A stretch of DNA of 64,000 nucleotides, taken from assembly GCA_951406725.2 (NCBI GenBank), contig OX597823.1, forward strand, positions 75,330,001 to 75,394,000. The letters are read 5' to 3'. Below, piece by piece: positions 1 to 62,983 of the stretch. Each line of letters begins with the position of its first letter. The first letter of the stretch is position 1. The DNA comes from Octopus vulgaris. Taxonomy: Eukaryota. The notes beneath the pieces were generated by a model. It was given only the letters and a program-made list of their open reading frames with translations, had not been told where the DNA came from and did not search any database. Made by a program: the position numbers and the translations under genes.

Positions 1-1606
1 TTGTACTATCATTCCTATCTACATATTGGCAGGTTTATTAAAAAATCTAGGATATGTGGATGGATTGAGAATTTATAGATATATAAATCATTAAAGATTT
101 ATATATCTATAAACGCAAACCAAACGGTATTGGTTTGCGTTTAGAAAGTGTCGCAAAAATGAACATCGGATTTAGAAAGACTAGCTGCTATATTTGTGGT
201 TGTGAACGAGATGTAAAGGCTACTTTTCCCTCCAGGTTAAACCAGGAAAGGCAACAGAAAGTCAGGCAAAAATGCAACAATAGCAATAGTTAATTCACCA
301 GGAAACGAATTCGCATCAAATTAATGGGATCGTAAATGAGAGAATGCTGAAGATGCCTTGCATATTTGGAGGAAATGCGTATAAAAGAATCAAGTAAATA
401 TTCTTCCTTGGCATTAAGGAAAAATATGTAAAGGGGATGCCAAACGGGAAAACTTGACATTTGGTTCCGGGGAAGAACTCGTCCACTTTAAAATGGAGTC
501 CATCTTCTGCAAGAGGAAATGTTACAAAAAAACACAATATTACAAAAACAACAGCGTTTTGTCATTTTAACTAGCATCTAATATGATATCTATATAATCT
601 ACTCTAGTATTTCATATACGAAGAATTTATAGGTTTGAGAAAGGAGCACTTATGTAACAGCACGAAAGAGACTGAATATCTATAAATTATAAGGAGATAT
701 TACGTTAATGTATATAATCATACTTATTGTAAACTGCATGAAAACTTCCCTGGCTGCTGTAAAGCAAATTTTCTTCGTCAAAGACTCTGGAATCTCTTGC
801 TATGAATAACGTAAGAAGTAAATGATATCGCATGCTTATATGATTATTTGCTCTATAAGTGTTTTAATTGTTTTCACTATAATTTAATATAATCCTTCAC
901 ATAAGTCCGTAACTGGAAAATATGTCTGAACCATACACATTTTTGAGCTTCTCTGTAGATAACACATTTTTCGTAATAGTCTTCTACGAGCTCGCTATCT
1001 CAGAAGTGAAAAACGAAATTTACTGCTATTAGTTCATCTGTTGAGTAATTATATCATTATTCACGATTACTATCCATAATACAACTTAGCTTCAAATAGA
1101 ATTTGACAAGGATTTCTATATTGTTTCAGATTTTCTGTCATTTTTCTTTTAAGTCGTCGCTTGTATGCAGATATGACTTAATATTTGAAACACACACATT
1201 TATATTATTTCATGATAACTATGTACGTCCCTCACATGGAGAGAAATTTTTACGCCATATACACACTCATTCATATAGATAGTAAAGGCCTGACATCTAA
1301 ATGTAAACACAGGAATTAAGATGAATATCATTAGAGAAATAAGCTGAGAATTTCGATTATCACAAATCGATGGAAACATGTTCAAAAATTTGGCACTTTA
1401 AAATAGGGTTTACATGCCTAAAAGGCGTGTCCTATGTCCCAAGCAAATGCGTGGCTTATCACCCATGATTATATTTTACACTTCTAAATGTTCTCGACCT
1501 TCAATACACCAAATTTGAATTATCACATTTAATTTCTTTTTTGTATCGAGTAATATAAGAAAATCATTAGTACTTTTATGTGTATTCGTTTATCAAATTT
1601 ATACAT

Positions 1607-2472
<866 letters not shown>

Positions 2473-2789
2473 TTGTTACCTCGTTACTACTTTCCACATG
2501 GCCTTAGAGTTAAATCTGCAGACTACATTTTGGGTCCTGAAAACAATTGTTAAGATCTGGATAGACAGCGTATGCAATGCAAGGACATATGTGCTGCAGT
2601 AACACTATGCACTATCACACATGGCTCTAGTAACACAGGAATGGAAGGCAGATATCAACTGCCAAAAAGCACCGGATAACTGAAAAGCAGACGAAACTAG
2701 TCAGCCCGTAGGTGAAAGGTAATTACTGATACCGATATTTCGCTGTTATTTCAGCTCATTCGCAACGTATGAGCGAATCACTGCGAAGC

Positions 2790-3110
2790 GAGTTAGAATC
2801 TCTGGTCTGAGGTACTTTTCTTCCTAACAACATGCTTCTGGATTCAGTTCCACTGCATGTAATCTAGAGCAAGTGTCTTCAGTTATAGCTTCGAGCTGAC
2901 CAAAGCCTTGAGTAGGGATTTCATAGATGGATTCCCACTAGCGCCGGATAACCGCTGTAGGTGTGTTTACGTTCCCTGTAAGTTACTAAGTTCCCATAAA
3001 GAGACCGATACAATAAGCACCAGACTTAAGAAGGAATTACTGGTGTCGATTCTTCTAGACAGTACTTCATCATGGCTGCAGTCTGATGACAGAAATAAGT
3101 AAAGGATAAA
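2790..3110 (+). mobile_element. Diverged tRNA-derived SINE (family B)
   Basis: B-box-like GGATTCAGTTCC, then GCAAGTGTCTTC...GACCAAAGCCTTG and tail CATGGCTGCAGTC...GAAATAAGTAAAGGATAAA; homologous to reverse complement of 20884-21290 and 45575-45975. Confidence 0.75.
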
Positions 3111-3887
3111 ACTTGTGTATATGTGTTTGTTCAATGTATACAAATAACATGGAATAAATAAATAAATAGTTACTAGAGTAGAAAAAATCTGCATAAGTTC
3201 CAAAGACATTGCAGCTTATAAAGGTAGCAATTCCAAGTTAAGTGAAATGTTTTTGTATGACATAGATAAATTAAGAAGTAGAGTCAAACGCAAGTGTTAC
3301 ACAACTCTGAATACTTCCGATATATATTTCGAAGAAAAACATTCATATTATTCAGGAGGGTATAAAATGATGTAAAGCAATGTAATCATATCGTCAGGGA
3401 AAAAGAGAGAAACAAAACACATTCATAAGCCATTTTAACCGAATATGATTACCGCATATATGATGAAAGGGAACGCAGGCGTTTTTTTTTTCTTATTAAA
3501 CTGCTAATAGATTTAACGTCACAGGTAATTTAAAGAAAGAGAAAGAAAGAAAATAACAGAAAATTAAGATAGGAGAAATATAGTGTGAAAGATGAAGGGG
3601 GAAAAAGCGAGATACCTGAATGGGAAAAAAGCTTAAAAGCATGGAAATAGATATATGTAGTGGAAATGAAACGTAAGAAGACATTTATTGGTCGAATTTA
3701 TAGATCGGTAGAAATTACTTAGAGGAACTAGAGGCATGTTTTTGACAATGCTTACGATATACACGTTATGTAAACGTGTTTTCAAGAATATTCTCCGAGA
3801 ATATGATAAGAAATTGTTCTTCGGTACAGAGAGGAGAAAAAGATTTACCTTTATCATATGAAAGTGATTCAAATTATATTCAAACAG

Positions 3888-5014
3888 TATTGGGTGATCC
3901 TATGAAATAATGCGGTTTTTACAAGTGCATGAACTAAAACTCGGAGTGGGACGGGATAAATTCTCTGCATCAACTCGCTGTAAAATTGGTTAGTAATTGT
4001 ACCTTTTACTTATTCTTAGTGTAAGTTTGGAAGAGTGCAGTTCGATTTTAATAGCTATTTTTTTTAAAGCTATAATGAAAGTGACAAAGGAGCATATTCG
4101 GCATATTTTGCTTTATGAGTTCCATAAAGGCAACAATGCAACAGAAAATGCAAAGAATATTAATGCAGTATATGGGGATCGGACAATAAGCGTACGCCAA
4201 TGTCAACGGCAGTTCCAGAAATTCCAAGCCAGAGACGACAACCTAGAAGATGAACTTCGTCCCGAAAATTTTGTAAAGCGCAACGAGTACGTCCTGCAAA
4301 CCCTGGTGGAACAAAATCCCATCATAAATGTTGAGGAACTAGGAGAGACGCGTTGATTTGGACATTCATCGACATCTGCGTGCCATTGAAAAAGTCGACA
4401 AATTGTGTCAATGTGTTCCTCACAAACTTACCAAGTCTAACCATGAGAAGACAGTGAATGTGTGCTCTTATTTGGTGTCATGTTTCACGAATGAACCATT
4501 TTTGGACCGATAGTGACTGATGACGAGCAATGGGTTTTCTATAAATATGTCAAGCGAAGAAGGCAGAGGATAGGGGAAGGAGTAACCTAGGCGGAAGAAG
4601 GTTTTCACCCACGTAAGTTGTTGGTATCTGCTTGGTGGCATATGAAAGGTTTAGACAGCTTTCAATAAATGAGATCTACTGCGAGCAGCTTCAACGGCTT
4701 AGGACAGCTTATATAGCATGGATGACATTCCAAGCGTTAGAGCAATGTGAATGGGAAACGATTCCCCACCCACCATATTCGCCGGAAAAAATATAAGTTT
4801 TGTAAACGGGGTCAGGAGAATAATGGAGGAGTATTTTTCGTAACGGTCAAAGGAATTTTAGAAGAAGTGTCTGGAAAGTCTACCAGATAGATGGAGAAGC
4901 ATTGTAGAAAATAAGATGAGTATATTTTATATTAAAAATGAACTCTGTTAATCCTAATTTTGAAAAATAAAAGATGTTTAAAAACTGCATTATTTTTGGG
5001 ATGTCCATGTATAA

Positions 5015-5016
<2 letters not shown>
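3888..5016 (+). mobile_element. Mariner (Tc1/mariner) DNA transposon, decayed, with terminal inverted repeats
   Basis: Left end TATTGGGTGATCCTATGAAATAATGCGGTTTTT (3888) matches right end AAAAACTGCATTATTTTTGGGATGTCCATGTATAATA (4980-5016) in inverted orientation; internal transposase remnants. Confidence 0.9.
4075..4935 (+). pseudogene. Mariner transposase pseudogene (stops, frameshifts, deletions)
   Basis: MKVTKEHIRHILLYEFHKG N-terminus, LEDELR, CVPHKL (WVPHEL motif), IVTDDEQWV (TGDEKW motif), PHPPYSP motif. Confidence 0.9.
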
Positions 5017-5067
<51 letters not shown>

Positions 5068-5374
5068 GGGTTGAGGAGGAATAATTCATGTGCGTATTTT
5101 CTAAATTTGAAAATGTACGCAGAAATAAAACGCATTGTCAAAATGTTTTATATTAGTTAAAAAACGAAAGATTTTTGCTCTACAGGGCAGTGCGTTTTTA
5201 TTGATTTTAGTGAATTTTCAGATCATTAAAATGGCATGTCAAGGGGACAAATCTTAGCATCTTCGACACGATTTGCTCTTTGCATTCATCGATATCACGT
5301 TGGAAAGAGCAGCCAAAACCTCACTCTAAAACCATATTAAATGTTCTTACAGCAACAGAAGGGAAGACAACAGA

Positions 5375-5406
<32 letters not shown>

Positions 5407-5499
5407 TTAGAGACAGAACCACTATTATGCAAATCAAACAAAGAAATACTTAATCCGATACATAAAAAAATTTATATAAATTAAGTAAAATTAAGTTAT

Positions 5500-5545
5500 C
5501 CACTACAATTGTTTCTTGTCACTTCTAAGGACATTCATCATGTGG
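5500..5545 (-). ncRNA. Inverted hammerhead copy with core mutation (ATGATGA)
   Basis: Reverse complement of 5612-5657 with the first core C changed to A. Confidence 0.6.
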
Positions 5546-5611
5546 TTTACAGACCTTCTATTCAATTTTAAATTGACTTCATAATTTAAAATTGAATAGA
5601 AGGTCTGAAAA

Positions 5612-5657
5612 CCACCTGATGAATGTCCTTAGAAGTGACAAGAAACAATTGTAGTGG
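5612..5657 (+). ncRNA. Minimal type I hammerhead ribozyme
   Basis: CCAC-CTGATGA-a-TGTC[cttagaagt]GACA-a-GAAAC-AATT-GTA-GTGG: stem I CCAC/GTGG, intact core, palindromic stem III ACAATTGT, GUA cleavage triplet. Confidence 0.8.
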
Positions 5658-5856
5658 ATAACTTAATTTTATTTAATTTATATAAAAATTTTTATGTATT
5701 GGATTAAATCTTTCTTTGTTTGATTTGCATAATAGTGGTTTTGTCTCTAATTAATATTATATAATATTTTATTATAAAATTGGATTCAATCCTAAATCTG
5801 ATTTTTCCCTATAAATTTGGATTTATTCCCTAATATTTATTATTATGTATATATAT

Positions 5857-5930
<74 letters not shown>

Positions 5931-6255
5931 GTAAGGAGTGTAGGTATCGGAAATCAAGTGGTTAGGGCTCATGAAGCTGCTTTTGAGATTCATGCTCTTA
6001 AGACACATATAGAGAGGGAGCAATGCTTCAAAACACCGCTCGCTGTTAGTTTTCGTGCTGCAAAAATAGGAATTTTGTATTTAAAGTCGGATCACATACC
6101 GGTGGATCAACTAAGTTCCATGAAGCAAAATTGAATCAAATTTTTCGCAAAAATCCGTGTCAAACGGACAAAGAAATGGCGGAAAAATCGATTTGTTATG
6201 AAACAACTCTGGTGAACCACCTTCAATCAATGGCCAAGGTTCAGAAACTTGGGGC

Positions 6256-6903
6256 TTGGGAGCCACACACACTGAGCAAAAACGACAAAAGTTAACACTC
6301 CACAATCACCACGAGCTTGCCTACTCGCCATCGCCCAACACATGGTCACAAACAACGTTTGTTTTTTACCGCGATGAAAAATGGCGCTTTTACGTCAATA
6401 TGAAGCTACGAAAAGAATGGCTCGGCCCGACAAACGAGCGACTCAGCGAGCAAAAAGACCTTCATCGTCAAATGACCATGTTGTGTGTATGGTTTGGACT
6501 GTTTAAACGCAACCAAACACTCACTGCAGAGCTTTACGTTCATCAACTGCACCGTTACAACAAAGCAGTTCAACGAAAAATACCGAATAGGCGACGTTCG
6601 TCTGGAAGGCCAATACGAACTTACATCGCCAATATGACCAAAGCCGCAATTCAAGAACACGAATGGGAAGTGTTGCCTCATCCCCCATACTCTCCAGACT
6701 TCGCACTGGACGATTTTCATCTCTTTGGACCGCTTTCGAACGCTTTGCGCAGTGTATCGTTCAATAATGACGTAGAATTGAGAGCTTGGTGGGACAAATT
6801 CTTTGAGTCAAGACCGGGGGATTTCAATCGACGAGGCATCGAAAAATGTACTGAACGTTGGGAGGACGTCGTAAACAACAATGGAGAGTGTATCAATGAT
6901 TAA
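6256..6903 (+). pseudogene. Mariner transposase C-terminal remnant
   Basis: ORF track: RDEKWRFYVNMKLRKEWL, MLCVWF, WEVLPHPPYSPDFALDDFHLF, GIEKCTERWEDVVNNNGE; HDNARPH motif lost. Confidence 0.9.
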
Positions 6904-7810
6904 TTTTTTTGTATTTTAATTGTTTAAAATAAATTTGAAAAAAAAAACGTGCATGAATTATTCCCCAACCCAATACACGAGACAGAGAGAAAAAAAGGAG
7001 AGAAAGTGGGGGAAGAGAAAAACGTACACTTAAGTGTATATCTGCTTCAGATAAACAAATTCTAAATCCTATCTTGTCATAAATTCTCGTATTTCGATGA
7101 GAATTGCAAATATGCATGAACTCATATGTACGTTGTGAACCTCACCACATAAAATGTGCACATCTGTCAGGAAAGTATTATGTCATATTGAATACATGAA
7201 CTGAATTCGTTGAATGATTCTGATTAATTACCCATACTTATTTTGTTCTGTTATGTTATCAGTGCTTAGTCTTTTTCAATCATTTTGTATTGCATCAACG
7301 TAAGCATTGTTCCGGTATATTTAGTTACAAATTGATATATATCGCTATTCAAAATACTGAATTTGCATTAATAAGAATTTACAGTGTATCTGATACACCT
7401 ATATAAATGCATTTTGTTGACTTCTTTGCATCTTCATTGTAGAATTTCTAATGTATTGAAAGCACTATTTGTTTTTAACTTCTTTCCAAACTTTCTACTT
7501 CTTCCTATTGTTACAATCGTCTCAAATATTTTACAGGATTATTTTATTAAACCGAGAAACATATAAAAGATCTTATCACTTGGATATACATTGCCACAGA
7601 TATACAGACTCACACACAAACACATACAGCAAGCTGTAATATTCTTCTCAAAGCAATAGTAAGATTTAGCTAAAGGGAATGCTTTTTCTTAAATAGAATA
7701 CTGACTAATAGAAAGCTTGCTGATACTGTCGCTTGGGCCAATGTGACCATATTTATTTATATATATGTGCGTCTATGTGTGTGCGTGTGTGTGTATGTAT
7801 GTGTACACAA

Positions 7811-7871
<61 letters not shown>

Positions 7872-7987
7872 TGTATAAGATCGTTATTTAAATACCGATC
7901 TTATCAGGTAGCCAGCATGGGAATAAAAACCTTCAAAGTTAATAATTATCATGAAAATTATAATTTAGGGTCTCTAAGAGATACCAC

Positions 7988-8064
7988 CACGCTGGAAATA
8001 GCAGCCAAAACCTCACTCTAAAAACACATTAAATGTTCTTACACCAACAGAAGGGAAGACAATA

Positions 8065-8105
<41 letters not shown>

Positions 8106-8121
8106 CATACATACACACACA

Positions 8122-8196
<75 letters not shown>

Positions 8197-8213
8197 AGTG
8201 TAGGTATCGGAAA
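7988..8213 (+). repeat. Likely source of the local duplication inserted into mariner 2
   Basis: CACGCTGGAAATAGCAGCCAAAACCTCACTCT...AGAATA-(TA)n(CATA)n(CA)n(TA)n-TAAGGAGTGTAGGTATCGGAAA matches 5296-5375 plus 5847-5953. Confidence 0.85.
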
Positions 8214-26872: not shown

Positions 26873-26925
<53 letters not shown>

Positions 26926-26940
26926 TTATTATATAGAAGG

Positions 26941-26991
26941 AGCTTCTACAGGACTAGAACTGTTTCATTCAAGAGAAATCTTCAGGAAGCT
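26941..26991 (-). ncRNA. Type I hammerhead ribozyme, inverted identical copy
   Basis: Exact reverse complement of 29341-29391. Confidence 0.85.
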
Positions 26992-27508
26992 AGTTAACAA
27001 GAATTGTATTGGCATTTATACATTTAGGCAGGTTTAAAGGGGTGTTGGTGGGGGACTTTTTGGGGGTAGGCATAGCGCAAAGTATCATACTTGGGGGAGT
27101 GGTCAAGGAGTCAGGGTTAAATTAGATAGAAGAATAAATAAAAAAATAAATAAATACATAAAAAAATAAAAAAATAAAAAATAAAATATATATATATAAA
27201 AAAAGGGGAAATAGAGTTTTAGGTAAATAAGGAGATTCTCACTTATACCTATGCACATATGTATACATATATACACACACATACAAACATATATACATAT
27301 ACATACACACATACATACACACACACATATATATACACTTACACATACATATACATATCTACACATACACATATATGTATACATATACACACAGAAAAAT
27401 TTATATACACATACACACACATATATCCACACACACACATGCACACACAGCAGCACATTAGTCCCTATATACACATATATACACATACACACATATATAC
27501 ACACACAT

Positions 27509-27565
<57 letters not shown>

Positions 27566-27982
27566 TATATACACATGTGTACCTATGCTTACCTCCACAT
27601 ACACAGATACAAATACAGACCCATTCCCTAATTTTAATTTTATTATCTTCGGTTTATTACTTTTGTTATCTTTGGCCGCTCGGTCACAAACATCTTGGCT
27701 ATGACAGCCTGTCCATTTATCTGTCTACTGGAAAACAAGCCCTCATTCACTCACGCGCACTTTTTAGCACGTACACTCACTCATTCGTACACTCATACAC
27801 ATACACGTACGCACGCGTTATATTCATACATACATACATCTACATACATTCACGTATATACACATACGTACGCGTACCTACAGATTCATGTCTACACTCT
27901 TAGAAGGCTAGTCTATACATATACACCAATAAATATAAATACACGCACATATATATACACCTACATACAAATACATACATGT

Positions 27983-28025
<43 letters not shown>

Positions 28026-28219
28026 CATATATATACACATATATACACACACACATATATACATATATATACACACATACACACATATACATATATATAT
28101 ACACACACATACACATACATACATATACACACATACACATACATACGTATACATACATCCATACATCCATACATACATACATTTATACACATACACACAC
28201 CCACATACATACATATATA

Positions 28220-28259
<40 letters not shown>

Positions 28260-28713
28260 TACACACACATACATATACATACATACATATACAAATATAC
28301 GCACACACTTACATATATACTCATATACACATACACGCACATACACATGTACATGCGTACCCAAACACACACACACACACGCGCGCATCCATATATACAC
28401 ATAAGTACACACATGCGTAAAAGTATACATATATCTATGCTTACACATACACACACACACACGCGCCTCCTTATATCCATACTTACATGCATACTCAAAA
28501 AATAAGTAAATAGTAAAATATATATACGCGCAGTTATTCATACATGCATACTCAAAATTTAATAATAAATATTAAGTATATGTACGTGCAGTTACCTATT
28601 ATATAGACATAATAAAATAAAGATAATAAAGATAATAAAATTAAAATTAGGGAATGGGTCTGTATTTGTATGTGTATATATATATGTGTGTATGTGGAGG
28701 TAAGCATAGGTAC

Positions 28714-28815
<102 letters not shown>

Positions 28816-29340
28816 GTGTATATATGTGTGTATGTGTATATATGTGTATATAGGGACTAATGTGCTGCTGTGTGTGGATATATGTGTGTGTATGCGTGTA
28901 TGTTTGTGTATGTGTATATAAATTTTTCTGTGTGTATATGTATACATATATGTGTATGTGTAGATATGTATATGTATGTGTAAGTGTATATATATGTATA
29001 TATATATGTGTGTGTATGTATGTGTGTATGTATATGTATATATGTTTGTATGTGTGTGTATATATGTATACATATGTGCATAGGTATAAGTGAGAATCTC
29101 CTTATTTACCTAAAACTCTATTTCCCCCTTTTTTATATATATATATTTTATTTTTTATTTTTTTATTTTTTTATTTATTTATTTATTTTTTTATTTATTC
29201 TTCTATCTAATTTAACCCTGACTCCTTGACCACTCCCCCAAGTATGATACTTTGCGCTATGCCTACCCCCAAAAAGTCCCCCACCAACACCCCTTTAAAC
29301 CTGCCTAAATGTATAAATGCCAATACAATTCTTGTTAACT

Positions 29341-29391
29341 AGCTTCCTGAAGATTTCTCTTGAATGAAACAGTTCTAGTCCTGTAGAAGCT
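29341..29391 (+). ncRNA. Type I hammerhead ribozyme, intact core
   Basis: AGCTTC-CTGAAGA-t-TTC[tctt]GAA-t-GAAAC-AG[ttctagtc]CT-GTA-GAAGCT: perfect 6-bp stem I, 4-bp stem III, GUA triplet. Confidence 0.85.
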
Positions 29392-29477
29392 CCTTCTATA
29401 TAATAAATTAATTTTACTCTGCTATGTATTGAGTACCTTATTTACTGTGGTTAACCCCGAATCAACCCGGGACCTAC

Positions 29478-39330: not shown

Positions 39331-40498
39331 AACCAAAATTTGTCGTTTATTTATCAGTGAGTTTTTCCTTGTATTAAATGCCCGTTCTGGTAACTTCTAC
39401 TTTGCAATATTTCATCTTATATCAACATGATATAAATTTTACATTTTCAGATTTTCCTTGTTTCAGCAGAATCTACTGAGTATTAATATATCATTGTCTG
39501 GCATACCTACGTATTTGTGCCCCACAGAAACTCTTTCCCCACAACTTCCAAAGGCAAAATACGTGTTTTTTAATGAAATAGTCTACAAATACGTTTTAGA
39601 TAATGTACATTACGCGTATATTAAAATTTATTGTGGAAACATTATTCCAGTATGTAGGGAGGGGAGTTTCGGAATTTTCATACGTCTCGGATTTTCTGCC
39701 ACATAACTTTCAGAATAAAGTGGATTTTTTTAATGAATGTTTTTACAAATATCTTTCACCATGTATAGAACATGATTATAAAGGTATAAATACAAAAAAT
39801 AAAAATGATGATCTTGCACATAAACATATTGACTTACATCGCATATATCTACCAAATGAATGTAAAACTTCGAAATAGATTGTGATGCATATCATTATGT
39901 ATGCGTGTTCACTAGTTATCTTTTCATATCAATTCGGATATATTCGTAATTTACAGAATATGAAAGGTATTTGTAGTAAATTTCATTAAAAAATTCCTAT
40001 TTTCCGACAGTTATTAGGAAATAAAATCCGTTTCATGTGAATTTTATGTAACTCCCCTCTCCATCCGCTGGAAAAGGTTTTAAAAACAAAATCCTCTTAC
40101 AATTGGAATCTACATCATCTGAAGCAAATTTGTAGAACATCTGATTAAAAATTGTTCATTTTTTTCTGGAAGTTGTGAGGAAGAAACTAAGGTGGGATGC
40201 ATATGTGTAGGTATGACAATTACTATAATACAACTAACATTAAGATTACCATGCTAATATATATCCACGTATCAGCTTGCCTCGCTTTCTTTCCTTTTTG
40301 TCTTGTATGTATAAACATTCGATTATGTACCTGTACGTTATGTATAAAACGTACAGGATTCGTTTGATTTAAATCAAATGGGTGACAATAATGTGAATAT
40401 GATGGGCTCATATAAGATAACGGTTTTCACGATGATGTGTACCATAACGAATACTAACTATATTGAAAATGCATGTTGGTATATATACATTCATACAT

Positions 40499-50226: not shown

Positions 50227-51350
50227 TCAAAGACAATATACATCTTATTCAAAGACAATAATTCTTTGAATCAAAGAAGTGAGTTAATGAACTTATGTAG
50301 GCACGCGGCTAAATTAAAAATGTCGAATATAAATATACCATATGGATAGAGTATATATTTTGTATTTTTGATTTTTGATTTTGATTTTGACTCTTGAGCG
50401 CTACGACGAATTTATAGCAAAGTCTTATGTTCCCACATATATATTAGGAAAAACCTACAAACTTTGTTTTCATGTTATTGTATTGCATAGGATTACCTTG
50501 ATTATTTATATTACCTTGATTATTTATAAATGACCCAAAATAGGATGTTATATTTTATTTTATAGGTCTTTCGTATATTTTTATTAATGCACCCATTTTT
50601 TAAAAGCAATGTTTTTTTATAAAAAAAGCAATGTTGTCAAATTTAGAATGTTTATATAAGTTTGTGTATAGCAAAGCATATGTATTTGTAAGCATGCGTA
50701 TCTGTGTATGTGTGAGTGAAAGTATGCTTGTGCTTAAGCACACATATACACGACGGTATGTATATGTATCAATTCAAACTTGTGTATGTATACAGGCCTC
50801 TATAGATGCCAAATAACATAGCTACAAGTTTTCCCCCCACCCCTCCTCCGTTCCTTTTTCTCTCTTTCCCTTTCTTTCGTTCCCCCTCCTTGCTCAGTAT
50901 ATGAGAATTGCTACATAGATGAATTTTAGCTTGCGTGCGAGACGGTTTGCGTGAATATATGTACACATGCTTTTATGTGTATAATTTAGATTCATATTCA
51001 TACGTCTGTATGTGTATGTATGGCGTTTACGCGCATCCTTTTGTGTATGTTGATATATATATGTGGATTTTAATATAAATATGTATTGCAGTATTTATAA
51101 CAGGTTTAATTTCTATGCATTAATTTGTACTGTCTTCATTAACGGCAACAGGTTTTTTCCTCGGTATTTTCCTCGGATTTTATAATTTTTATAAGTTTTT
51201 ATATATATATACATATATTTTTGACCTTTTTGTTTATCGCTCGAAGATTGACCGTTTTTTCTAAAGGGCCAATCAAACAAGTCCATTTCTTTTTAAAGGT
51301 GTAGCGTTTGTAAGAGTATAGATTGAATTAATATATATGTTCCATTCTAG

Positions 51351-51400
51351 CAAAAACTGTCTGATGAACGGCAACGAGAAACTCAGAGTAACAGATTTTG
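51351..51400 (+). ncRNA. Minimal type I hammerhead ribozyme (family 4), ~28 nt upstream of the 4-kb (TA)n
   Basis: CAAAAACTGT-CTGATGA-a-CG[gcaa]CG-a-GAAAC-TCAGA-GTA-ACAGATTTTG: stem I 9 of 10 paired, GNRA-capped stem II, near-palindromic stem III ACTCAGAGT, GUA triplet; AATAAA follows at ~51421. Confidence 0.82.
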
Positions 51401-55565: not shown

Positions 55566-57750
55566 TTGGCAGATCTTTGTAGACACCGTCACAGACATAT
55601 GTGCAAAACACTCCCCACCAAGACCTGTGAACAAAAAGTGCAGAATCCCCCAAAACAGAAAAACCATTATCAGAAAAATAAAAAGAACAAACAAAAAAAT
55701 TAACAAACTAAAGTACTGCCAACAGCAACACACACATTCGACGGCTATCGCACTGCTTGAATCCAAAAAATATAACCTCCAACAATGCATGAAGTCCCTC
55801 ATCAATAACCAAAGATCAGCTGAGGAGAAGTGGGCCATTGAAAAAATCAAACTCAACCCCAAAGTGTTCTTTTCATTTGCGAGGAAACGCAGGGTCACTG
55901 TCTCCACTGTAGGCCCTCTAATTGACGAAACTGGCACTCTCCAAGATAATGCCAAATCCATGGCCGAGATACTGCAGAAACAATACTGCTCTGTTTTCAG
56001 CAATCCTGATATGGCCGATCTGGGCTGTATCAGTGATGTCAACCCCCAACACACTATATCGGACATAACGTTTAGTGCCCCTGATGTCTTAGCGGCGATA
56101 AACGAAATAAAACACAATTCAGCAGTAGGCCCCGATAGGTTCCCTGCTTGTGTCCTGAAGGTGTGTCGACACCAACTTGCATCTCCCTTGCTAATCTGTG
56201 GAGAAACTCACTGGATGCTGGCTATATTCCAAAAAACCTTCTGTCCCAGTCTGTTGTCCCAGTTTTCAAAAAGGGAAACAAGTCCCTTGCAGTGAATTAC
56301 CGTCCGATCTCACTCACCTCTCATATCATCAAGGTATTTGAGAGGGTGGTGAGATCTCAAAATAACCCAATTTCTGGAAAGCAACAGACGGCTGATCTCC
56401 AACCAACATGGGTTCCGTAATGGAAGGGACTGCCTAACGCAGCTCCTGCATCACTTTGAGGACATTTTGAGAGCTTTGGGAGAGGGCTCCAACACCGATG
56501 TCATCTACCTTGATTTCAGTAAGGCCTTCGACAGGGTCGATCACAAGATCCTATTGAAAAAACTATCCAACATTGGTGTCTCTGGAAAGTTACTGAAATG
56601 GATTAAGTGTTTCCTGACAGACAGATCTCAACATGTTGTAGTTGAAGGGGTAAAATCAAGCCCAGCCAAAGTCAGTAGTGGCGTTCCGCAAGGCACTGTG
56701 CTGGGCCCACTTCTTTTCATCATTTACATTAATGACATTAATGACATCATCAAGCACAGCAACATAAAAATCTTTGCAGATGACTCCAAGCTACAGAAGG
56801 TCATAAATGAGGCGAGTGACCGGACATGCCTTCAGTCAGATCTACTGGCTGTTATCCAATGGGCAGAAAAAAACAATATGCTGCTGAACGAGGATAAATT
56901 TGAGCTAATCCACTTTGGAAAAGAGGATGCCCTGAAACTCCCATACTCCCTTCCTTCAGGTGAAACTCTCGCGGCGTCCAACAACATCAGAGACTTGGGA
57001 GTAATTGTGGACAACAACGTAAGCTGGGCCACTCATATAAACACCAAAGTTGACATGGCCCGCAGAATGTGTTCCTGGATTCTCAGAACTTTCCAGTCGA
57101 GAGATATCCACACCATTATCCTTCTCTTCTCCACTTTTGCCCGACCCCACCTTGAATACTGTTGTCCACTGTGGTCTCCCCACACAATACAAGGTATCAA
57201 AAAAGTCGAAGCACCTCAAAGGGCAATCACAAAAAAGATAGATGGCATGACAGGCCTCGACTATTGGGGTCGACTAGAAAAGCTAAAACTCTATTCTCTC
57301 CAACGTCGTCGTGAGCGCTACATCATCTGCATGATGTGGAAAATATTCCATCAGCATTGCCCAAATGATGTTGGCATCACCTTTAAGGTACATCCAAGGC
57401 TTGGGCCCCGTGCCATCCGCCCAAAACAAAAATCGCACTCTCATCTCATAACAACAATACGGCACAATTATTTCACCTCAATTGGCCCCGCTCTCTTTAA
57501 CATTACACCAAAACACATTAAAACAGAAACTGACCCTATAGGGTTCAAGAAGTCTTTGGACAGATTCCTTCAAGAAATCCCGGATAAACCCCCTACACCC
57601 GGATATGTCTCTGTAAACAATAACTCCCTACTTGAGTGGGCCATAGTGCCCAAATTCTGACTTGAAAGACTTCACCAGGTGGTGCTATTAAGTTAGACAT
57701 GGCCTGGGCCAATAATGGCCGAAACCTATCAAAGTATCAAAGTATCAAAG
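55561..57750 (+). mobile_element. 5'-truncated CR1-group (CR1/L2/Crack-like) LINE inserted in (TA)n
   Basis: RT ORF, short 3' UTR and terminal (TATCAAAG)3 tandem tail; TA repeats on both sides; no endonuclease domain present. Confidence 0.92.
55627..57660 (+). pseudogene. LINE ORF2 reverse transcriptase with two frameshifts (~56195, ~56360)
   Basis: [115 protein letters not shown]. Confidence 0.93.
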
Positions 57751-62388: not shown

Positions 62389-62727
62389 TTGGTAAAAATG
62401 GTAAGAATACAAAAGAATGAAAGAGACCTCGATATTATGTAAATAGAGGAATTTATCTGTAAATGTAATACGTGACAATTATTTGGATGCCGGGGTGGAA
62501 ACCCACACCGCCATCTCCTCAGTTATCCGGCCATCGTAAAAATGCTATGAAAATAACTGAATAACGGATAACTGAATAAATTGCGGCGTGGACTTCCACC
62601 TCGGCATCAGAAATTCGGAGTTGTATCATGGTTACCGAATAATTGTCACATATTGCATTTACAGATATATATGGTGCCCCAGCATGGCTGCGGCCTTCGG
62701 GCTAAAACATTTTTAAAGGATTTTAAG

Positions 62728-62770
<43 letters not shown>

Positions 62771-62983
62771 TTAAAATCCTTTTAAAATGTTTCAGCCCGA
62801 AGGCCGCAGCCATGCTGGGCACCATATATATCTGTAAATGCAATATGTGACAATTATTCGGTAACCATGATAAAACTCCGAATTTCGGATGCCGAGGTGG
62901 AAATCCACGCCGCCATTTATTCAGTTATCCGTTATTCAGTTATTTTCATAGCATTTTTACGATGGCCGGATAACTGAAGAGAT
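62389..62983 (-). mobile_element. Nested inverted-repeat element with degenerate hammerheads (family 5) and captured SINE tail
   Basis: Inner IR 62455-62529 / 62565-62666; outer IR 62513-62730 / 62767-62983 around (TA)n; cores CTGAGGA (62516-62522, -), CTGAATA (62572) and CTGAAGA (62974); GAAATTCGG...CCGAATA stem III; tail 62389-62454. Confidence 0.75.

Follow-up and report, generated by a model that had tools for sequence, protein, structure and literature searches.

A tailed inverted repeat in a (TA)n tract of Octopus vulgaris, probably the decayed end of a hammerhead-bearing Penelope-like retrotransposon

Insertions of Penelope-like retrotransposons (PLEs) are described, in the accessible parts of PMC8557442 and PMC8969392, as having an inverted 5′-truncated copy, a tail at one end and a bias towards microsatellites. 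The tail is given as 30–40 bp and is found at one end only (accessible text of PMC8557442), and PLEs tend to insert beside existing copies (accessible text of PMC6765202). Minimal hammerhead ribozymes, as far as the available portion of PMC4209133 describes them, have an extra nucleotide after position 9, a palindromic stem III and weak cleavage as dimers; the same source reports dual minimal hammerheads that lie 100–700 bp apart on opposite strands and are probably truncated PLEs. Dimer cleavage of minimal hammerheads is also among the subjects reviewed in the accessible part of PMC6765202. An anole element, described in the available text of PMC11167929, cuts and extends both strands, and its tail is the stretch between two sites at which reverse transcription starts.

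We analysed a 64,000-nucleotide stretch of O. vulgaris DNA (the window, from whose first letter all positions below are counted unless another locus is named), in which positions 5393–5846 form a hairpin inside a (TA)n tract. We consider it probable that this hairpin is a dead insertion, the decayed and truncated end of a hammerhead-bearing PLE. A preliminary description of the same DNA had read the anatomy well and had recognised the ribozyme as dimer-type; it had not named the class of element, and the structure is less unusual than it implied, because all parts of the hairpin match PLE insertions described in the accessible text of PMC8557442 and PMC4209133.

With the hammerhead-bearing EN+ PLEs (Neptune, Nematis, Penelope/Poseidon and Hydra clades; accessible parts of PMC8557442 and PMC11167929), the insertion shares an inverted truncated copy, a one-sided tail, two 3′ ends, an AT-rich or (TA)n target without a readable duplication, and a hammerhead near the 3′ end. 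It differs from them in that no reverse transcriptase or GIY-YIG endonuclease frame was seen here, and in a tail of 83 nt rather than 30–40 bp. Two smaller features recall the anole element PAc, as described in the available text of PMC11167929: an ATG opens stem II of the hammerhead both there and at position 5623, although here the frame ends after 12 codons, and the loop of a stem in the tail (5776–5805) recalls the AC-rich loop at which reverse transcription of the anole element starts. With the minimal or atypical type I hammerheads of metazoan PLEs (accessible text of PMC4209133), the family shares a 4-bp stem I, an extra nucleotide after position 9, a short palindromic stem III, dispersed single copies and opposite-strand pairs, whereas it differs from them in the absence of a G10.1–C11.1 pair, in a stem II of 4–6 bp against the usual 7–8, and in lying below Rfam detection. 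Naiad PLEs also show a (TA)n bias, inverted copies and a tail; however, according to the accessible part of PMC8557442 they lack canonical hammerheads, and this hairpin family has one.

Anatomy and nesting of the insertion

The two arms of the hairpin (5394–5574 and 5583–5763) are 181 nt each, lie 8 nt apart and are 95% complementary, with nine mismatches between them. The right arm, on the plus strand, is the 3′ region of the element, pseudo-LTR-like, up to an inner 3′ end; the left arm, on the minus strand, is an inverted copy of that region, which ends at the same inner 3′ end and there merges with (TA)n. At the head-to-head junction of the arms, the 8-nt spacer (5575–5582, plus strand) probably consists of the 5′-most bases of the right copy, to judge from contigs of other copies, which contain these bases. 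Beyond the right arm only, a tail of 83 nt (5764–5846, plus strand) runs to the outer 3′ end; it includes a short internal direct repeat and, at 5776–5805, a stem of 11 bp whose 8-nt loop is rich in A and C, and it has no counterpart beside the left arm. The near-perfect hairpin plus tail of the preliminary description is thereby borne out. The computed folding energy of the hairpin is about −259 kcal/mol, and a read-through RNA from 5394–5763 would be expected to form a 181-bp duplex.

Measured against the family majority, the private departures are concentrated in the left arm, which holds eight of the nine arm differences (about six to seven events on the left and one on the right), but the imbalance is not significant (binomial p 0.07–0.13). 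ADAR editing was considered as the origin of these differences and rejected, since three of the eight left-arm changes fit, which is too few.

The target is recognisable on both sides of the insertion, as (TA)12 at 5376–5399, the last 6 nt of which are common to the element end, and as (TA)6 at 5848–5859. It belongs to a segment that is present twice on the plus strand of the window, once filled (5294–5953) and once empty (7986–8213). Positions 5296–5399 match 7988–8091 at 94%, homology resumes past the insert to 5953/8213, and outside the insert the two segments are about 94% alike from 5294/7986 to 5953/8213. Alignment of 5296–5953 with 7988–8213, which the preliminary description had proposed, defines the insert, with homology on both flanks. 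It had also claimed that 7988–8213 preserves the empty (TA)n target, and this copy does contain an unbroken (TA)17 (8068–8101), as against (TA)12 plus (TA)6 around the insert. No third copy of the segment was found in the 64-kb window.

The filled segment lies inside a decayed mariner (5064–6975, plus strand) with terminal inverted repeats at about 5064–5100 and 6942–6975 and a transposase remnant at 6202–6903 (PF01359, E 2.4e-5). To the left of the segment, a mariner piece weakly resembles the N-terminus of the neighbouring mariner (E 0.018); the piece to the right of the insert gave no significant match in searches, and the transposase frame could be followed past the insertion by eye only. 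All three of the nested layers recognised earlier are supported: the hairpin in (TA)n, the (TA)n in the duplicated segment, and the segment between the mariner terminal repeats. Because the filled copy interrupts the mariner, it is plausible that 7988–8213 is the source of the duplicated segment and not a sister copy, a reasonable reading of direction; the two segments (7986–8213 and 5294–5953) could instead belong to a dispersed repeat family. We infer that the mariner came first, then the segment, then the PLE.

The window contains several other repeats. A separate decayed mariner at about 3900–5010 (HTH_48, E 5e-19), whose inverted repeats lie near 3905 and 4995, is found directly upstream of the host mariner, with (TA)n between the two. 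Self-comparison of the window also brought out an older inverted repeat at 39499–40218 (64%) and a large microsatellite-rich inverted duplication at 26920–29412 (88%). A second near-perfect palindrome (62513–62983, 96%) is centred on (TA)n, and its arms carry a degenerate hammerhead-like motif; in the surrounding region (62400–62983) there is also a third, partial copy in minus orientation, which is extended by a further tail of about 65 nt until (TA)n is reached. This palindrome is unrelated in sequence to the hairpin at 5393–5846 and has the same core-plus-tail layout.

The hammerhead motif and its partner

The right arm contains a type I hammerhead (5612–5657, plus strand) in which the CUGAnGA core, GAAA, UH and stems I and II are all present. 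Stem I is 4 bp (5612–5615/5654–5657), the intact core occupies 5616–5622, GAA lies at 5642–5644, and stem II (5624–5627/5637–5640) is 4 bp, or 6 with a bulge. Stem III is the 8-nt palindrome ACAATTGT at 5645–5652, in agreement with the palindromic stem III reported earlier, and cleavage is predicted after 5653. Between the motif and the common 3′ end (5763) there are 106 nt. An extra unpaired A (5623) follows position 9, before the 4-bp stem II, and the G10.1–C11.1 pair is absent, with A at 5623 and A at 5641; position 5641, A at this locus, is C in a subfamily. Judged from the sequence, the missing pair may lower the activity of the hammerhead.

In the left-arm copy (5500–5545, minus strand), core C3 (5541) is replaced by A, as the preliminary description had noted, and this copy is predicted to be inactive. 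C3 is required for hammerhead cleavage, according to a C3G mutant in the accessible part of PMC11167929. The replacement is one of the nine arm differences and looks like neutral decay.

We searched for comparable motifs with a hammerhead descriptor that was written after the motif had been seen and that required a stem II of at least 3 bp. It matched once in the 64-kb window, against 0.065 matches per simulated window, and with a palindromic stem III it gave no match in 200 simulated windows. Rfam at its gathering threshold matched no hammerhead family in the whole window, and at E ≤ 10 on 5300–5950 it returned no hammerhead family, just generic sub-threshold hairpin matches.

Variation among family copies bears on whether the motif functions. 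Five of the 22 listed family variants fall in the hammerhead motif (5629, 5636, 5641, 5647 and 5650). None of the 29 core and stem I/II positions is among the listed variants, as against five of the 17 other motif positions (Fisher p 0.0045); outside the motif 17 of 189 positions vary, and from this level the 29 positions do not differ significantly (p 0.14). Two of the variants, 5647 A>G and 5650 T>C, match each other in depth and in number of contigs in all four runs that we aligned (see below), at about 20–36% of depth. The two changes are linked and amount to a compensatory replacement of A-U by G-C inside the palindrome, which is kept. In the monomer this pair closes just a 2-nt loop, and the change therefore points to pairing between two ribozyme copies. 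It may be a single subfamily event, and for that reason we count it as one observation.

Folding was in line with this reading. The minimum-energy fold of the homodimer is a double hammerhead (−18.8 kcal/mol), and the best fold of the monomer (−4.3 kcal/mol) is not the hammerhead fold (−3.8 kcal/mol). Given the compensatory change, the 29 variant-free positions and the double-hammerhead co-fold, we consider that the ribozyme of the family is probably real and dimer-type, and we predict that it cleaves. The dimer-type reading of the preliminary description is thus upheld for the family, by the compensatory change and the homodimer fold, but not for this locus, where the two hammerheads lie on opposite strands and the hairpin sequesters both. 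With hammerheads on opposite strands, one transcript has one sense copy only, and within the full hairpin five sampled hammerhead pairs had computed probabilities below 1e-14. The locus cannot supply the dimer, because its hammerheads face opposite ways and the hairpin buries both. From these models we infer that the ribozyme at this locus is inert and that this copy could not cut itself.

Another part of the window contains a second type I hammerhead-like motif (51357–51393, plus strand), with a 4-bp stem I, a 2-bp stem II flanked by A on both sides, and a near-palindromic stem III. A (TA)n-rich array of 4 kb follows it after about 40 nt; the homodimer of this motif gave no double-hammerhead fold. 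A LINE-type reverse transcriptase remnant (55590–57660; RVT_1, E 3.8e-24) starts directly after that array. At 50230–50349 (plus strand), directly after a long (TA)n, lies the 39-aa end of a frame, which we take to resemble the C-terminus of a Neptune-type endonuclease; a search of 1.84 billion proteins gave no match, and neither did Pfam.

A looser hammerhead pattern identified 22 loci in metagenome contigs, none of which belongs to the family of this hairpin. Three of the 22 (L008, L016 and L019) passed the hammerhead descriptor, L019 in another register; L014 was similar by eye and was rejected since it failed the descriptor. L008, which is unrelated, has a hammerhead with the same G-C form of the palindrome, downstream of a reverse transcriptase with bdelloid rotifer relatives. 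At 970–1951 of this locus (minus strand), four hammerheads in the same orientation lie downstream of the broken reverse transcriptase, three of them with a palindromic stem III (6–8 nt), and the L016 motif is closely similar to that of L008. We presume the L008 reverse transcriptase to be PLE-like because of its motifs and its relatives in rotifers; searches of Pfam and PDB did not label it as a PLE enzyme.

Copies of the element in public sequencing runs

Public sequencing data offered a view of the element beyond this locus. Twenty-four runs were listed, 20 of which contained some of the stretch, from 10 studies; none of these was listed as an RNA run. Four runs, with three organism labels and from three studies, were aligned, and these were compared with 5555–5850 only, at 80% likeness. 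Matching contigs numbered 5409, 1883, 2156 and 170 in the four runs and were mostly 90–99% alike, so the homologous copies elsewhere on which the preliminary description had staked its reading are found in all four (170–5409 matching contigs per run). The element is a dispersed, multi-copy family. The family pattern had no match in viral contigs and none in genome contigs, and no tandem copies of the element occur in the 64-kb window. Direct head-to-tail joints were absent among the joints listed for 5555–5850, a range in which longer units would be missed. We found no published description of this hairpin family; the supplements of PMC4209133 and PMC8557442 could contain one.

The contigs also delimit the 3′ side of the element. 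In the four runs, at least 55, at least 40, at least 37 and at least 7 contigs have (TA)n behind 5763 and agree poorly beyond it. The end of the tail is followed by (TA)n in at least four contigs, in one run. Since (TA)n follows both 5763 and the tail end, the family has two 3′ ends. The left arm of the hairpin stops exactly at the inner one, which is the common one, and the 83-nt tail is common to family contigs.

Towards the 5′ side, coverage falls. Summed contig depth, which is no copy number, was 26–57 times higher at 5725–5734 than at 5615–5624 in all four runs. At 5555–5564, a stretch expected to be covered just by contigs that run across the centre of the hairpin, it was 0.0004–0.003 of the level at the hammerhead in the three DNA-type or unlabelled runs with cover; run X9, guessed to be RNA, had no cover there and was used neither for nor against. 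Because contig depth is no copy number, we treat 5′ truncation and rarity of the exact hairpin as hints only.

Among the contigs listed, three further junctions were found, 5583/5648, 5588/5713 and 5578/5634, in one contig each, and all three, like the junction at this locus, have one side within 5575–5588. Opposite-strand joints occurred in two further contigs among those listed, and one contig runs on for 87 nt with different sequence before 5570. The recurring 5′ boundary, seen in few contigs, could be a transcript start or a favoured fold-back site.

Origin of the insertion

Several traits of PLE insertions are found together at this locus: a type I hammerhead lies near the 3′ end of a pseudo-LTR-like region, an inverted truncated copy adjoins the 5′ end, and dispersed copies show a bias towards microsatellites or (TA)n. 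The tail is one-sided and family-wide, but has 83 nt as against the described 30–40 bp, and no reverse transcriptase or GIY-YIG endonuclease frame was found in the insert or linked to it within the 64-kb window. By these structural tests, the element appears to work like a PLE pseudo-LTR insertion.

We propose the following mechanism. The GIY-YIG endonuclease of a PLE would nick the (TA)n target, and reverse transcription would start at two sites close to each other within the RNA of the element, an inner one near 5763 and an outer one near 5846. Both copies would stop about 30–40 nt upstream of the hammerhead and would be joined head to head. They could be two cDNAs, each primed from a different target strand, or a single cDNA that folded back; in both cases the outcome would be an inverted repeat that has a tail at one end only. 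The two-site start and the both-strand priming are suggested because the anole element does likewise (accessible text of PMC11167929). Cleavage by the hammerhead of the parent element would take place in a dimer, with the 8-nt palindrome pairing one copy to another on the same strand.

The alternative that survives best, although we consider it unlikely, is a short non-autonomous hammerhead retroelement, retrozyme-like or SINE-like, of 190–270 nt with a fixed 5′ end near 5575–5588, which would borrow PLE enzymes and insert into (TA)n as monomers or inverted pairs, and would not be a truncated autonomous PLE. The junction at this locus and the three other listed junctions, each with one side within 5575–5588, are consistent with such a unit, as is the absence of a coding partner from the window and from the viral, genome and metagenome contigs searched. 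Non-LTR retrozymes are moreover described as PLE derivatives with monomer copies, and share with this family shortness, AT-richness, absence of coding, a type I hammerhead and high copy number (accessible parts of PMC7229834 and bioRxiv 10.64898/2026.07.22.740005). However, no head-to-tail array is found at this locus or among the listed joints, the window holds no tandem copy, and the layout here is inverted. The contig that extends 87 nt with other sequence before 5570 also argues against a fixed 5′ end, such an end would equally come from run-off at a PLE transcript start, and the junction contigs are few and were matched at 80% likeness. A more elaborate form of this idea, which we regard as a long shot, is that the family is a short non-coding hammerhead unit with a fixed 5′ end near 5575–5588, internally primed near the 5′ end of a PLE-type RNA, spreading into (TA)n to reach a very high copy number and routinely forming head-to-head hairpins, and that its ribozyme, without the G10.1–C11.1 pair, cleaves between RNA molecules through a palindrome under selection.

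Returning to a single insertion of a truncated PLE, we reasoned that the left arm, with eight of the nine private differences, leaves room for a history in two steps: the family could have inserted twice into the same (TA)n, each time independently, or a single copy could later have been duplicated locally by fold-back. The uneven distribution of private changes (about six to seven on the left against one on the right) fits such a history, as does the tendency of PLEs to insert beside existing copies (accessible text of PMC6765202). Nevertheless, there is no TA between the arms, both 5′ ends fall within 8 nt, the arms agree in state at all five variable hammerhead positions, and the left arm ends exactly at the common 3′ end of the family; we consider a two-step origin very unlikely.

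Similarly improbable, and to our minds still harder to sustain, is a foldback or MITE-like DNA element, in which the whole hairpin would be mobile through a TA-targeting Tc1/mariner transposase and the hammerhead would be a passenger. The long inverted arms, the TA flanks and the two mariner remnants nearby favour it, and Tc1/mariner MITEs share the shortness, inverted arms and TA flanks (accessible text of PMC8969392). Such elements differ from the present one, which has a one-sided tail, a rare hairpin centre, variable junctions and a hammerhead. The tail is found on one side only, the other listed junctions are asymmetric, self-comparison of the window showed no match between the ends of the arms and those of the local mariners, and depth at 5555–5564, beside the centre, is low, which is a hint, as depth is no copy number and hairpins assemble poorly. 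Finally, palindromes can be sequencing artefacts and no listed contig spans the whole 5555–5850 stretch, but an assembly artefact (a fold-back read) or a chance motif is scarcely credible when the arms differ at nine places, the junction region has contig cover in three of the four runs, the motif had no match in 200 simulated windows, and its variation preserves the structure.

Taken as a decayed PLE end of an already described layout, the single locus matters little. The filled and empty paralogues, though, show a (TA)n clearly both before and after an inverted, tailed insertion of PLE type, the mechanism of which is still open according to the accessible text of PMC8557442 and PMC11167929, and the 5647/5650 change supports the dimer model from natural variation. 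If the family were instead a non-coding unit with a fixed 5′ end, double-stranded RNA directed against the family would be supplied from within, by its own hairpin copies; and if that unit were of fixed length, with its non-standard base in stem II, it would form a bridge between retrozymes and the pseudo-LTRs of PLEs.
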